64,000 bases of DNA from Eledone cirrhosa (taxonomy: Eukaryota): positions 342,240,001 to 342,304,000 of the forward strand of contig OZ024743.1 of NCBI GenBank assembly GCA_964016885.1, in the 5' to 3' direction. Below the pieces are notes generated by a model. It was not told where the DNA came from and searched no databases. It was given only the letters and a program-made list of their open reading frames with translations. A program made the translations under genes and the position numbers. Shown piece after piece: positions 5,241-64,000 of this stretch (within the stretch, counting starts at the first letter, position 1; every line of letters starts with the position of its first letter).

Positions 5241-5449
5241 GTAATAATAATAGAATTGAAGACTAAAATCCAAAGAGGGCCCGAACGTTACCACGAACCA
5301 AAGTATCGTCTTCCTGTCTTCCTCCGGTTGCAACGTTTTTTGAAATATCCAGTTCTGCGTTTACAGATTGACTTTGTTAGTTTCAGAAGATCCCGTTAAG
5401 GGTGAAAGCAGCGATTCTTTGCTTAAACTTTAATCTGTTATTTTAATAA
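5241..5449. mobile_element. Mini insertion: inverted tail plus partial pLTR of the Penelope family at 16873-19605
   Basis: 5241-5280 is the reverse complement of the tail at about 19556-19600; 5284-5449 matches 19340-19506; (TA)n on both sides. Confidence 0.8.
5379..5429 (+). ncRNA. Type I HHR with U4A core variant (CAGAAGA)
   Basis: AGTTT-CAGAAGA-T-CCC(GTTAA)GGG-T-GAA-AGCA(GCGATTCTT)TGCT-T|AAACT. Confidence 0.7.
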
Positions 5450-5461
5450 ATATATATATAT

Positions 5462-5665
5462 ATAGGAATGAGTAGGATCCCGACAGCTGAGCTAAAGCCG
5501 TTTCGACAGCTAATTATGGACTCAGAGTCCAGAATTAGCCGTCGAAACGGCTTGAGCTCAGCCGTCGGGGTCCTACTCATTCCTATTACCCACTCTATTA
5601 CCCTAAGTATTGAGTACTTTGGTGCGTTATGGTCAACCTGGTTCCTTATCACATTTCCTTCGTTA
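5462..5665 (+). mobile_element. Fold-back mini element (hairpin 5462-5586 plus about 80-bp tail) with HHR 3' half
   Basis: Near-perfect palindrome centred on 5524; GAA-ACGGC(TTGAGCTCA)GCCGT-C|GGGG; family copies at 5696, 13530, 22660, 31222, 33130. Confidence 0.85.
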
Positions 5666-5695
5666 TATAAATATATATATATATATATACATATA

Positions 5696-5856
5696 ACGAA
5701 GGAATTGTAGTATGGAACCAGATGGACCATAACGCACCGGAGTACTCTATACTTAGGGTAGTAGAGTGGGTTATAGGAAAAAGTATGACCCCGACGGCAG
5801 AGCTCAAGCCATTTCGACGGCTTGAGCTCTGCCGTCGGTGTCATACTTTTTCCTAT
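5696..5856 (-). mobile_element. Same fold-back family, opposite orientation
   Basis: AACGAAGGAA..GGAACCAGATGGACCATAACGCACC..; terminal hairpin 5774-5856; (TA)n flanks. Confidence 0.85.
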
Positions 5857-6139
5857 ATATACATATATATATATATACATATATATATATATATATATAT
5901 ATATATATATATATATATATATATATATATATATATATATATATATTTATATATTTATTTATATATATATATATATATAAATAAATATACACGGGTGTGT
6001 ATGTTTGTGTATAGAAGATTATATTAATAAAAGGAATTCCAACTTTGTCTGATTTACTCGTTTTATTTACAATCCTTTAAAATGTATAATGGTATTAGAA
6101 TGAAATAGTATGGTAGAATATTAAATGTTAAGTGTTAAT

Positions 6140-59744: not shown

Positions 59745-61215
59745 TCTCTATCTCTCTATATATAAAACGGTAGATGTCTGTATGTGTGTATGTATGATTT
59801 TTATGCATTTCCACATTTCTCTACCAATTTTGATGAATTTTTTCCCAATGTGCTCCACATTTACCAGGGGAGGTCAACATGTAATTATTTTTGGCAAAAG
59901 TGTCCTGCTTCTATGAAAAAAAATCGATAATACTAAATACATGCTGTAACCCTCTCTCTTACATGCTTCATTCCTCTCACTACTACTATCAAAAATATAT
60001 GAAACTACATACATGTTGCATCTCTCTTTAAAAGGTTCATATTTTCCACTACTCCACTCTCAATCTCATCTCCAACTCTCTTTAAAAGGTTCATCACTCT
60101 CTCTACCCCCCCCCCCCCCCTAAATCTCCTCTGCAACTCTCTTTAAAAGGTTACTGCCTCCGTCTACTACCCTATCAACATTACAATTTAGAACGACAAA
60201 ACTTCTTTTGAAGGAACGCGACACAAACTTTGAAACCTAATCAACACAACAACCATAGTTTTACTCTCTCTACAATAGATTATTCCCCCTCTGTACAGTC
60301 ATAACGACACTCATACATAAAATATCAAAATTTAAAAAGCCGATAACACTAAATACATACTGCTCTATCAACGTTATATTTTACACACTTACAATTTACA
60401 TCAAATAACAAATATTCAAAAGCAACAGATGAATTTATAAAACAACAAACGTAACAATAACGACCTCTCTATAATTTAACTGCTTTACTCTCTCTGTCGC
60501 TCTTCACTCCCTATATGACAACACTGCAGAGAGAGAAACAATGTATATGATCAAATGGAGCGTTCCGTATATTCCCCCTCTCTATAATTTAACTGCTTTA
60601 CTCTCTCTGTCTTTCTTCACTCCCTATATGACAACACTGCAGAGAGAGAAACAATGTATATGATCAAATGGAGCGTTCCGTATATTCCTCCTCTCTATAA
60701 TTTAACTGCTTTACTCTTTCTGTCTTTCTTCACTCCCTATATGACAACACTGCAGCGAGAGAAACAATGTATATGATCAAATGGAGCGTTCCGTATATTC
60801 CTCCTCTCTATAATTTAACTGCTTTACACTCTCTGTCTTTCTTCACTCCCTATATGACAACACTGCAGTGGATCGTTCCGTATTGAGCGTTCTGTATTAG
60901 CATACGGCTTATCTGGGGCATTTTCAATCGACTTATTGCAAATAACAACCGGCAAAAGAACACTTAATATAACAAATTAATGCTATAGACATATGAATCG
61001 GAATGTAACCCGTGAACTTTTTCCTGGGCAAAATTATTCAAACAGACATGACCTCATTGCCAGAGTGTTCAGACTGAAACTGGCTAAACTCATGGCTTTA
61101 ATCAAAAAGGTCGGGTATTTGGGGCTGTAAAATGTGACATGTTCACCGTGGAATGACAAATACGAGGGCTGCCACATGCTCACATTTTGATTTGGTTAGC
61201 TGATAAAATCAATTC
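59745..61215 (+). mobile_element. Truncated Helitron with Rep fragment
   Basis: TCTCTATATATAAAA 5' end; 60996-61210 reads ELFPGQNYSNRHDLIARVFRLKL..VFGAV..VE*QIRGLPHAHILIWL (HUH motif). Confidence 0.8.
60464..60868. repeat. 113-bp minisatellite, about 3.6 copies, inside the Helitron
   Basis: ATAATTTAACTGCTTTAC at 60471, 60584, 60697, 60810. Confidence 0.92.
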
Positions 61216-61236
61216 AAATGCCATAACTGGCGTAAC

Positions 61237-61655
61237 CATGTCCGAAGGAAGTTGACCATTAGCTACCGCAGATTTCAACGAAATTCGCTTAGTCAGTTCA
61301 CACATTTTTTTAATTGTTTAATTTATAATTTCTGATATTTGATTTAGGATTTTAATTTATATTTCCAACTCTCACTCTTAACTTCCAATGTAAAACCATG
61401 ATACCTAGAATTAAGTTTATTTTCCCTTATGAGTTGATGGTCAGTCGTACTGTCCACGCTTGGTGAGAGGTAGTATTATGACCTGTAAAAAATAACACTC
61501 TCCCATCCCCTCTGGCTTTCGGCTGACTGCCAGTCGGGATGGGTAGCAGTAAACTATGGTACAGGCCTAGGTGGGCCATTGTGTGGCTGAGAGGGTGAAC
61601 TGACTAAGCGAATTTCGTTGAAATCGTAGCTAATGGTCAAATTCCATCGGACATG
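61237..61655. repeat. Inverted repeat, about 60-bp arms (61237-61301 and 61595-61655)
   Basis: CATGTCCGA..GATTTCAACGAAATTCGCTTAGTCAGTTCAC versus GTGAACTGACTAAGCGAATTTCGTTGAAATC..TCGGACATG. Confidence 0.8.
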
Positions 61656-62613
61656 CGCCTGCGCAGACCGGTGGGGGTGAATTGGTACTCACAGGGGAAC
61701 GGATGAAAAACCCAAAAAGCACGCACTTCATCCGTTCCCATGTCGATTCAATTTGGATTGCCTCGGAAACATAACCTTATTATGTAACAAGCTGCCTAAT
61801 GATGTCACGACACTCGCACACAGAACAGTGTGGCCAGTGTCGTCATTGAAATATATATCACAGCATTATTATTAAAGGACATGAACATCTGAAACTACTT
61901 CGCTTTTCCTTATTATATATATATATATATATATATATATATATATATATATATATATATATATATATATATATATATATATATATATACGAATATATAT
62001 ATATATATACGAATATGATATGTGAATGCGGGTTGCGATGTACGATAATAAAGGCTGTTATATAGACAATCCTGGCGACCCTGATACGCTGGTGATGATT
62101 ATATGTTGCTCGAATAAGATTCTGCAAAATTACTATAACCTGGTTTGTTATCCAACGTAGCAAAGATTATTTCATTGGTCAGATAGCTGATTTCTTTCAA
62201 ACTCCCTAATACTTCATCTAAATATATTGGCGTGCCACAACGCAGTGATTTATTTCTGTCTATAGAGATACACTACTCTGACATAGTACTATTTAACCAG
62301 AGTAACACCTCGGGAATATGAGTGAAGAAGCACAACCACAGACCTACAATTATTTCCGTTGCCTTACACAATGAGTTAACTTCTCGCCTCCCTTATTCCT
62401 CTAATAATTCTTTAGTAGTAATTTTATATCTCTTATTTACCTTTTACACAATGTATAGTATTCTTATATTGTTTAATGTATTGTATGATTTTCGTTATCA
62501 GATATGTGACGCCAAATCATGTTTTCCCGTTATTCCTCTCTATTTGCCTTTGTTATTATATATATATATATATATATATATTTAAATATATATATATATA
62601 TATATATATATAT

Positions 62614-64000
62614 AGCGGCGATGAATTAGTTTTGCGAGGTTTTTTATATGAAATCGTGTGTCGAAACAAATATTCTTATACTTGGGGAGGGTCATATTTG
62701 TGTAATATTGCCAGAATTAATAACAGAACACACTCATTGTTTGGTTGGTTTTCGCTTTTCGCTTCTGTGTCTTTTATATCGGTAATCTAATTTATTCGGT
62801 CCTCAATGTTGCCATTGACTAACCAACGGTCAAAAATAATTGTTTCTACTTTTGGCACAAGGCCAGCAATTATCCAGTGCATTACTGGTACTTTATTTTA
62901 TCGACCCCGTAAGGATGAAAGGCAAAGTTAACCTCGGCGGGATTTGAACTCAAACCATAAAGGGGCGTAACTCTTTGCTGCAAAGCATAGCGTCTGACCC
63001 TCTACCGATACTGCCAATCCACCAACGGTCAAAAATAATGCAGATACAATATAGACACAAACACATATATATAGTATATCAAAGTTCTTTCGTTGCACAT
63101 CTGCAACATCGTCAGTGGTGCTATTGTTTCCTCCCGTTGCATTGTATTTTCTACGCCATCAATATTTAGTCTGTTTATATATTTATTTATTTGTTTATTT
63201 TATTTTGTCTTCTTTGTGCATGCGTTTGCGTGTGTGTATAGTGTTTTGTTTGATGTGTGTTCGTGATTGGGTGACTGCGTATTGGTTAATGTATTCTATC
63301 TTTACTAGTGTGTGTTTATATGTGTTTGTTTTTATTGTGCTTGTGTATGTATATATTTATTTATTTATTTATTTATCTATTTATTTAGAAAAGCCAGGAA
63401 CCACCATAACATCCCTGATCAGCAAAACCTACCCTTTTAAGAAAACCCACTGTACTAATAGGAAATGTATCATATGTAAGGTAAACCCCCAGATAAACTG
63501 TAAAACTAGAAACGTAGTCTATAGCATAAGATGTACAGAGGGTACTTGCAGAAATATGACAACAACATACATAGGCGAGACAGTTCGTAGCATAGGTGAA
63601 AGGATAGACCAACACTGGGGGGAACTAAAAGGACGAAAAAACGGTTCAGTACTATACGAACCTGCCAGACAACAACACGACGGTAACATAGACAACATAG
63701 AAATTAGAAAAATATCTAAACATAGAAATGACCCAGCAGATAGGCAAATTAGAGAAGCAAGTGAAATAGAACTTAGAAGGCCAAGGCTAAACAGAAAGAA
63801 TGAATGGAATAACAACAACACCCAAACAAACAACACCGACCTAAGAGAAGTATAAATAAATAAATAGATAAATAAATAAATATATACATACACAAGCACA
63901 ATAACAACAAACACATATAAACACACACTAGTAAAGATAGAATACATTAACCAATACGCAGTCACCCAATCACGAACACACATCAAACAAAACACTATAC
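62614..64000. mobile_element. Naiad-like fold-back: tailed 3' UTR on minus (62614-63385) and GIY-YIG plus UTR on plus (63386-64000, runs off the window)
   Basis: EKPGTTITSLISKTYPF..CIIC..VVYSIRC..YIGETVRSIGERIDQH..RQIREASEI..LNRKNEW; arms 63208-63385 and 63850-64000. Confidence 0.88.
62841..63023 (-). mobile_element. SINE family A inserted in the Naiad UTR with about 19-bp target-site duplication
   Basis: ACCAACGGTCAAAAATAAT at 62822-62840 and 63021-63039. Confidence 0.88.

Follow-up and report, generated by a model that had tools for sequence, protein, structure and literature searches.

The window analyzed here (G000:C4:342240001-342304000) is a stretch of 64,000 nucleotides within the 3.0-Gb genome of Eledone cirrhosa; its GC content is 35%, and dinucleotide repeats account for 11% of its length (own mask). 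The inserts under study consist of two arms joined head to head, and they are copies of Penelope-like elements (PLEs), mainly of the Hydra clade plus one Neptune/Nematis-like family. Twelve families were labelled A–L; each arm is described by its short (S) or long (L) 3' end, and positions are numbered from S. All 15 loci listed in a sequence-only reading of the window proved to be head-to-head inverted repeats with an arm identity of 85–98%, the tail being one-sided and making one arm longer by approximately 35–170 nt (Table 1). Four further pairs of the window lie outside that list (5241-5445, 42696-42829, one that runs from 62618 to beyond the window end, and, probably, 15370-15975). Where both ends of a pair could be assigned, one S end was almost always joined to one L end, and this near-strict S+L pairing is an addition to the known PLE layout.

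The 3' ends of the arms face outward, as that reading had held. A strict hammerhead scan gave matches in families A, E, F, J, and L, all pointing to the outer end, and none in five shuffles; the cut sites given for these families are predicted from the motif. Orientation was taken from remnants of reverse transcriptase (RT) and GIY-YIG endonuclease in families C and D, from open reading frames (ORFs) of other copies in G and H, and from partial hammerhead motifs recognized by eye in B, I, and K; partial or variant motifs were also seen by eye in C, D, G, and H. The outer ends usually abut microsatellites, likewise as proposed, although this failed at two ends of the listed loci (22660 and 40592).

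Table 1. Paired and solo inserts in the window (S and L, short and long 3' ends; left and right as on the forward strand).
Position	Insert	Strand	Description
3184-3918	Solo element, 734 bp	+	(TA)n at both ends; no inverted partner; second copy at 14570-15303
4018-4951, 59024-59745	Solo copies of a further family akin to D		Hammerhead-like motif on the minus strand; 3' end on (TA)n; no inverted partner
5241-5445	Family C pair, outside the list of 15		Tail-only L arm (-, 5241-5284) and S arm (+, 5283-5445); no sequence common to the arms
5462-5665	Family B pair		S left (-), L right (+); tail ~5587-5665
5696-5856	Family B pair		L left (-), S right (+)
15370-15975	Further pair, probable		Arms 15410-15556 and 15751-15909; tail to 15975 resembles family I tail
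16873-19605	Family C, Hydra-type		Long S arm (-, 16873-19083) retaining traces of RT and GIY-YIG; the L arm (+, 19084-19605) has a tail that begins ~19505 and finishes in (TTA)n
22660-22864	Family B pair		L left, end without microsatellite; S right
25706-25888	Solo arm	-	(TA)n borders the 5' end and (CT)n(TA)n the 3' end; a relative lies at 46441-46645 (+)
27247-29820	Family E, Hydra-type RT		S left, predicted hammerhead cut 27302 (-); L right, tail ~29725-29820
29863-30855	Family K pair		L left, tail ~35-43 nt; S right, then (CT)n, then (TA)n
32594-32975	Family I pair		S left; L right, its end on C-run and (CT)n
33778-34540	Family J		L left, partial tandem (485-bp unit), predicted hammerhead cut 33971 (-); S right
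37730-38105	Family L pair		L left, tail ~83 nt; S right, predicted hammerhead cut 38050 (+)
40592-41014	Family D pair		S left, adjoining SINE-like repeat, not (TA)n; L right
42696-42829	Family C pair		Tail-only L arm (-) and 55-nt S arm (+)
47152-48698	Family F		S left; L right, tail 169 nt; 595-bp non-coding tandem unit; U3-A8 variant hammerhead, predicted cuts 47231 (-) and 48449 (+)
48770-51598	Family D, Neptune/Nematis-like by motifs		Long S arm (-) carrying RT remnants; L arm (+, 50921-51598)
51789-52587	Family G, Hydra		S left, end on (CT)n; L right, tail ~107-111 nt
57937-58447	Family A, Hydra		S left, predicted hammerhead cut 57993 (-); L right, tail 96-97 nt followed by (CT)n(TA)n
58507-58992	Family H, Hydra		S left; L right, tail 134-136 nt
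62618-64000	Family D pair		L left, interrupted by SINE-like insert 62832-63021 with 19-bp duplication; S arm extends 382 nt beyond the window end to (TA)n

The positions of the outer ends were determined in three samples of the genome. The random sample comprised 79 stretches of 10 kb (790 kb), in which arms were counted if they reached to within 60 nt of S or beyond, and the held-out sample comprised 20 stretches (200 kb). The anchored sample comprised 180 loci of six families, the anchor being sequence common to both arm types; these sets were sorted by similarity to the window copy and are biased to young copies. The anchored and random samples superseded a whole-unit genome search, which favours copies with like joints. 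Among the 149 arms of the random sample, 66 ended at S, 75 at L, and 8 elsewhere, while the 29 held-out arms ended at S, L, and elsewhere in 13, 12, and 4 cases, respectively. The two sharp outer peaks that had been predicted for a genome-wide histogram were thus obtained (141/149 random and 178/180 anchored arms at S or L). A microsatellite lay within 24 nt of 135 of the 141 S or L ends of the random sample, compared with 13.7% of random positions.

The 45 adjacent head-to-head pairs of the random sample were made up of 33 SL, 2 LL, and 1 SS pairs and 9 pairs with an unassigned end, whereas tail-to-tail neighbours numbered only 4; the held-out sample contained 3 SL pairs and 2 with an unassigned end. 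For the anchored pairing count, 6 window copies and 13 duplicates were removed, and the arm at locus L055, an L arm carrying an internal deletion, was counted as L. The remaining 161 insertions included 68 SL, 2 LL, and 1 SS pairs, 17 insertions in which an inverted piece was present but its end could not be located, and 73 solo copies; opposite-strand ends downstream were found in 4 of 167 cases. The family A long-end pattern gave 30 matches, with 15 S partners, 3 L partners (2 insertions), 2 unassigned partners, and 10 solo copies. Same-type pairs accordingly made up only 3/36 and 3/71 of the pairs with both ends assigned in the random and anchored samples, respectively. Since S and L are approximately equally common, independent starts would yield SS or LL in half of the pairs. 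In the SINE-like family (after short interspersed elements, SINEs) used as a control, opposite-strand neighbours were found in 4 of 155 matches.

It should be noted that pairing is frequent but, contrary to what had been claimed, not near-universal. Arms without a detected partner amounted to 62/141 in the random sample and 19/25 in the held-out sample, and of the 73 solo insertions in the anchored sample (73/161), 31 were scored as having the 5' end on (TA)n and 42 were of other kinds. The related statement that no 5' end touches the flank also failed: the four solo copies of the window that begin at 3184, 14570, 25706, and 46441 lack an inverted partner and have 5' ends on microsatellites. 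Clean solo copies whose 5' end lies on (TA)n were found at the anchored loci L057, L058, L216, L224, L283, and L289 and, in full length, at L298, although some of the 31 stop at element-internal repeats. Among the solo copies, S and L types are each common, and some are likely decayed or interrupted pairs.

Comparison of the two arms in 55 pairs revealed that the S arm extended further in the 5' direction in 22, the L arm in 12, and both equally in 21, and the L arm consisted of the tail only in 8 of 41 S-anchored pairs. The tail-only L arms exclude copying by fold-back for the pairs concerned, and an S arm copied from the L cDNA could not pass the 5' limit of the L arm. In six families, the arms of a pair had diverged about as much as separate young copies had, an argument against both conversion and read artefacts, and gene conversion between arms was not evident in these families. 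In each of the 24 SL pairs of family B, the two arms carried matching subfamily marks (permutation mean 9.6, maximum 18), and one of its three LL pairs was of mixed subfamily; this suggests that both arms of an SL pair come from one source. Arm lengths in the unbiased sets ranged from 10 nt to more than 2.5 kb, and at locus L300 both arms exceeded 2.5 kb and overlapped the ORF.

The inner junctions were variable, as predicted, but they clustered at a point characteristic of the family (A, -222; B, approximately -60; E, -157 to -177; H, -177 to -201), and the expected microhomology was less common than extra bases (18 and 33 of the 51 measurable joints, respectively). The 18 joints with an overlap of at least 0 had a mean overlap of 2.4 nt versus 0.85 nt in jittered controls, and an overlap of at least 3 nt was found in 7 of the 18 versus 8.6% of controls. 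The extra bases were templated or untemplated. The joint hotspot may be either the 5' end of the RNA or a stop of the RT at a hairpin; no added G was seen by eye at the 5' hotspots. In a search of 55 pairs for target-site duplications, these were masked by pure (TA)n.

Assignment to the PLEs rests on coding remnants and on anatomy. ORF pieces with RT plus a GIY-YIG endonuclease at the C-terminus were found in copies of families A, C, D, E, G, and H; no ORF was found for B, F, I, J, K, and L, of which F and J are non-coding tandems, while B, I, K, and L are filed with the PLEs by shared anatomy. The description of the families as unrelated holds at the DNA level, whereas their proteins are those of PLEs, with 31–40% identity among four Hydra-type families. 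The family G protein had 52 homologues at E ≤ 1e-10, those named coming from Hydra and Octopus. The motifs RWK and DKT were found in G and RWR and DKT in H, the two families in which the N-terminal region was recovered (it was not in A, C, and E), and families A, C, G, and H share a CxCX5C linker, a later CxxC, and an endonuclease without CCHH (alignment A1). The (TA)n preference of the clade was reflected in 170 of 180 anchored ends lying on microsatellites. Family D was excluded from the Hydra clade by its DKS motif, CX4CxxC linker, and pair of cysteines within the GIY-YIG core, is 24% identical to G, and appears Neptune/Nematis-like by the motifs in PMC8557442. The Naiad and Chlamys groups were ruled out, as the endonuclease is C-terminal and hammerheads are present, and a miniature inverted-repeat transposable element (MITE) or foldback DNA transposon was ruled out by the unequal ends and the variable centres and arm lengths.

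Partial tandem structure with a pseudo-long terminal repeat (pLTR) was also found: the 5' pLTR passes through L into the ORF start at L298 (family G) and at L300 and L301 (family H), so S and L are internal points of the RNA, and tandem units were seen in F and J. The genome search returned nothing for family F, and its further copies were seen only in other sampled loci. Its tandem of 591–595 bp has a U3-A8 variant hammerhead core, and the tandem copies at L290:2044-3924 and L305:5512-7452 are 100% identical, by which they are very recent. Among the 150 of 188 Rfam matches listed there was no hammerhead family, only microsatellite and hairpin noise below gathering scores. The Hydra-type proteins were not recognized in Pfam and PDB sequence searches; among the PLEs, Pfam gave a weak GIY-YIG match alone, on another element of the window.

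Repeats at the outer ends follow the terminal bases of the elements. (CT)n occurred solely behind ends whose own last bases read CT: (CT)4 or longer was found behind 14 of 45 family A long ends, 4 of 20 family G short ends, and 0 of 11 family A short ends, and at a threshold of three units the frequencies were 19/53 and 0/47. It always appeared as CT on the sense strand, never as (AG)n, with (TA)n always next and with up to 35 units, and in insertions with (CT)n the S end of the same insertion was on (TA)n. Had (CT)n been present in the target before insertion, AG would be expected at the opposite end. At other ends the last TTA or ATAA was reiterated, with (ATAA)n at family C short ends. Stuttering of the RT at initiation is the simplest reading that these end sequences suggest; the alternative is that later polymerase slippage next to (TA)n made the repeats. 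Internal two-unit seeds (CTCT or AGAG) showed no expansion in six checks of 15–173 copies each.

The (TA)n tracts had been regarded as the target, and the ends do sit on microsatellites; however, insertion itself seems to generate part of the flanking repeats, which would then not be a purely pre-existing target. The search for empty sites gave 22/184 and 7/200 matches, all but two of which were self-matches or chance neighbours of repeats. Empty orthologous (TA)n sites had been called for; two paralogous ones were found, for L286 and L050, with no more than 5 TA units compared with at least 30 at the occupied site. Several families are stacked end to end via shared (TA)n tracts at 5241-5856 and 57937-59745, and in these stretches each insertion seems to create targets for the next.

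A candidate start-site helix was identified behind the ends. The motif RTYGAG was found in 8 of 12 tails and in all 4 segments behind L (shuffle means 0.39 and 0.14, respectively), while the upstream and antisense controls gave 1/12, 1/12, and 1/4. In most motif-bearing segments, a CTC able to pair with it lies 4–12 nt behind the start. The helix motif was retained in 13/15 long arms of family A, 8/10 of C, 11/14 of G, and 15/16 of H, and in 2/13 of E; for family A, the sequence behind L was not recovered intact.

As judged from these sequences, the inserts are 5'-truncated insertions of endonuclease-positive (EN+) PLEs with outer ends at two fixed sites, and the two-armed ones probably arise when a single particle nicks both strands and primes once at S and once at L. 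One RNA–protein particle would nick both strands of an AT-rich target, and reverse transcription would be primed once at the short and once at the long site, both being RT starts on the sense RNA. In the Hydra families, each start may be set by a helix, formed by CTC 4–12 nt behind the start and closed by RTYGAG, by which one RT of a dimer would be kept in place. Before proceeding, the RT would often repeat the last template bases, giving (CT)n, (TTA)n, (ATAA)n, and probably (TA)n, and the two cDNAs would run to the 5' end of the RNA or to a hairpin and be connected by end-joining with short overlaps or extra bases. Abortion or later loss of the second arm would leave a solo copy whose 5' end lies on (TA)n. 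The template might be one RNA read twice, by strand displacement or as a tandem transcript, or two RNAs from one source; the long overlapping arms of L300 require strand displacement or a tandem transcript in the one-RNA version. Priming on both target strands in one integration is what we infer from the pairing and the arm geometry, and the mechanism is also supported by in vitro work on an Anolis PLE, in which both strands were extended, two internal starts were used, and a dimer was predicted (PMC11167929). The sequence-only proposal of two primings at two fixed RNA positions with central joining is thereby kept as the best reading (S+L in 68/71 and 33/36 pairs, tail-only arms), although it is not universal and refines a known layout. 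Considerably more tentative is the extension in which two anchor helices, a dimeric RT, and telomerase-like repeat addition act together and the elements themselves produce a large part of the (TA)n and (CT)n(TA)n that they target, in a self-feeding loop.

Several observations weigh against priming at both sites by one particle or against its parts. Besides the large share of arms without a detected partner, family D obeys the S+L rule without the helix motif (0/11), the reference tails of E, J, and K also lack it, the motif was chosen after inspection of the sequences, its 3' half lies 16–114 nt from the start, and the predicted folds are weak. The concordance of the arms could be mimicked by subfamilies active at different times. 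The joint clusters of A, B, E (here -167 to -173), and H (about -190) sit at self-complementary spots, which would equally fit self-priming, and a clean overlap was present in just 18 of 51 joints, the other 33 carrying 1–53 unmatched bases, some of which are reference mismatches. Informative empty sites are available for just 2 of 200 insertions, the start site was found to be alike on both strands in PMC11167929, and no record among the independent runs listed bridges the centre joint of the family A copy of the window.

Among the other explanations, trimming by the element endonuclease, suggested in the available passages of PMC8557442, would have both arms start at L or at the RNA end and one of them cut back at S during resolution. 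It would account for the strict S+L asymmetry and the rarity of LL pairs, but short ends, with (CT)n in G and (ATAA)n in C, show the reiteration seen at long ends, which an RT start would predict; unpaired copies are common for S as well as for L, and both sites are RT starts in vitro (PMC11167929), so that it is considered unlikely. A little less likely still is single priming at L, after which the cDNA, or an antisense RNA as proposed for the Adineta PLEs, would fold back and copy itself, the second arm being clipped or stopping at S. This course, proposed in the available part of PMC3846280, fits the joint hotspots at small palindromes or hairpins and the common subfamily of both arms; yet a copy of the L cDNA cannot outreach its template, as the S arm does in 22/55 pairs, the arms are no closer to each other than separate young copies, and nothing is shared between them in 8/41 pairs (for example, at 5241-5445 and 42696-42829), so that for tail-only pairs it is contradicted.

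Amplification of ready-made palindromic masters as units, in a MITE- or retrozyme-like manner, would explain the many full-length matches to the whole 504-bp family A unit, the few family B centres that recur exactly, and the non-coding tandems of F and J. The centres of the family A full-length matches vary between copies, however, and the wide range of arm lengths in the unbiased sets (10 nt to more than 2.5 kb) also speaks against such masters, which makes them improbable. An assembly artefact from fold-back long reads, or later hairpin repair within (TA)n, is hardly credible, even though a few pairs are near-perfect palindromes (L005, 99%) and the bridging of the centre joint of the window copy was not seen. 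The arms differ by 2–15% and end at distinct family-fixed sites, the SINE-like control rarely has opposite-strand neighbours, and raw short reads of a separate study contain head-to-head joints of family A copies (2–4 reads each). The independent reads that had been called for were thus seen for family A joints elsewhere but, among the records listed, not for the centre of the window copy; at that locus, a contig spans the unique flank into the S arm (57645-57973).

Priming at S and at L resembles the twin priming of L1, in which, as reportedly described by Ostertag and Kazazian in 2001, both target strands prime on the element RNA and joining at short overlaps yields an inversion. L1 twin priming differs in that its second start varies in position and its two pieces share no overlap; the elements studied here have two fixed, internal starts, and their arms mostly overlap to form an inverted repeat. 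Template slippage at the 3' ends of long interspersed elements (LINEs) and repeat addition by telomerase are known to reiterate the last template bases at the RT start, whereas here reiteration would act at internal PLE starts and yield compound (CT)n(TA)n. In the literature searched, which did not extend to older subscription papers, no statement of S+L pairing, of the helix, or of repeat addition was found for PLEs.

The Hydra clade was described by Craig et al. (2021; PMC8557442) as C-terminal EN+ PLEs with RW[KR], DKT, a CxCX5C linker, and no CCHH, and in the available passages an inverted 5'-truncated copy is described as frequent, the tail as optional and often at one end, and insertion as biased to (TA)n, with the mechanism left open; the supplement, as available, includes an octopus family, Hydra-1_Obim, with a (TA)n preference. 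The elements of the window agree with this clade in the RT and C-terminal GIY-YIG, the hammerheads, the (TA)n target, the inverted truncated copy, and the one-sided tail, but their tails are 35–170 nt compared with 30–40 nt, and the S+L rule, the start-site helix, and terminal reiteration, which are features here, are not stated in those passages. In the in vitro study of the Anolis Poseidon element PAc by Frangieh et al. (2024; PMC11167929), both target strands were cleaved and extended, two internal RT starts bounded the tail, a dimer was predicted, and RNA downstream of the starts was required. The two internal starts flanking the tail and the AT-rich target are common to PAc and the elements studied here; however, PAc belongs to another clade, the bulk assay did not pair starts per event, the inverted arm was left unexplained, and repeat addition was unreported. 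For the EN+ Penelopes of Adineta vaga, Arkhipova et al. (2013; PMC3846280) proposed, in the part available, self-priming on an antisense template; these elements likewise have a head-to-head inverted pLTR, a one-sided tail, and joints with palindromes and microhomology, but that account is contradicted here by the tail-only arms. The available passages of PMC9977147 and bioRxiv 10.64898/2026.07.22.740005 add little further on these questions.

Other repeats of the window were also identified. A perfect 190-bp palindrome at 56553-56742, with arms 100% identical, is centred on a short (TA)n, has unique flanks, and lies outside the S/L pattern. At 7306-10216 lies a Hydra-like PLE that has inverted ends of 360 bp but lacks (TA)n flanks; it is inserted next to a degraded PLE remnant with RT and GIY-YIG (approximately 6100-7270). 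The 3' part of a LINE remnant, presumably RTE-like, at approximately 13900-14457 is on the minus strand and the preceding part on the plus strand, resembling an L1-type twin-priming inversion, and a GC-rich, frameshifted non-LTR (long terminal repeat) retrotransposon with RT and no Pfam match lies at approximately 10300-13230, its C-terminus being, we assume, of the restriction-like endonuclease type. A Mariner-like element with 101-bp terminal inverted repeats and a weak HTH_48 match was found at 36175-37041, and the abundant 190-bp SINE-like repeat at 9607-9799, 35835-36023, 57285-57473, and 62832-63021. The elements at 19800-20510, 26180-27190, and 60464-61190 have internal tandem repeats of 110–165 bp and a subterminal inverted repeat and are taken to be like non-autonomous relatives of Helentrons; what we take for a Helitron-like Rep motif lies near 61150.

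Consequently, as the layout itself was already known, the gain is mechanistic and consists of the one-source S+L pairing, the test of fold-back copying, and the signs of repeat addition. The strict S+L pairing, the common source of the arms, and the tail-only arms argue against the published self-priming, and this is directly testable in the existing in vitro system. If true, repeat addition at the start sites would tie the RTs of PLEs functionally to their telomerase relatives and would offer an origin for the microsatellites and hairpins that are dense in this genome.

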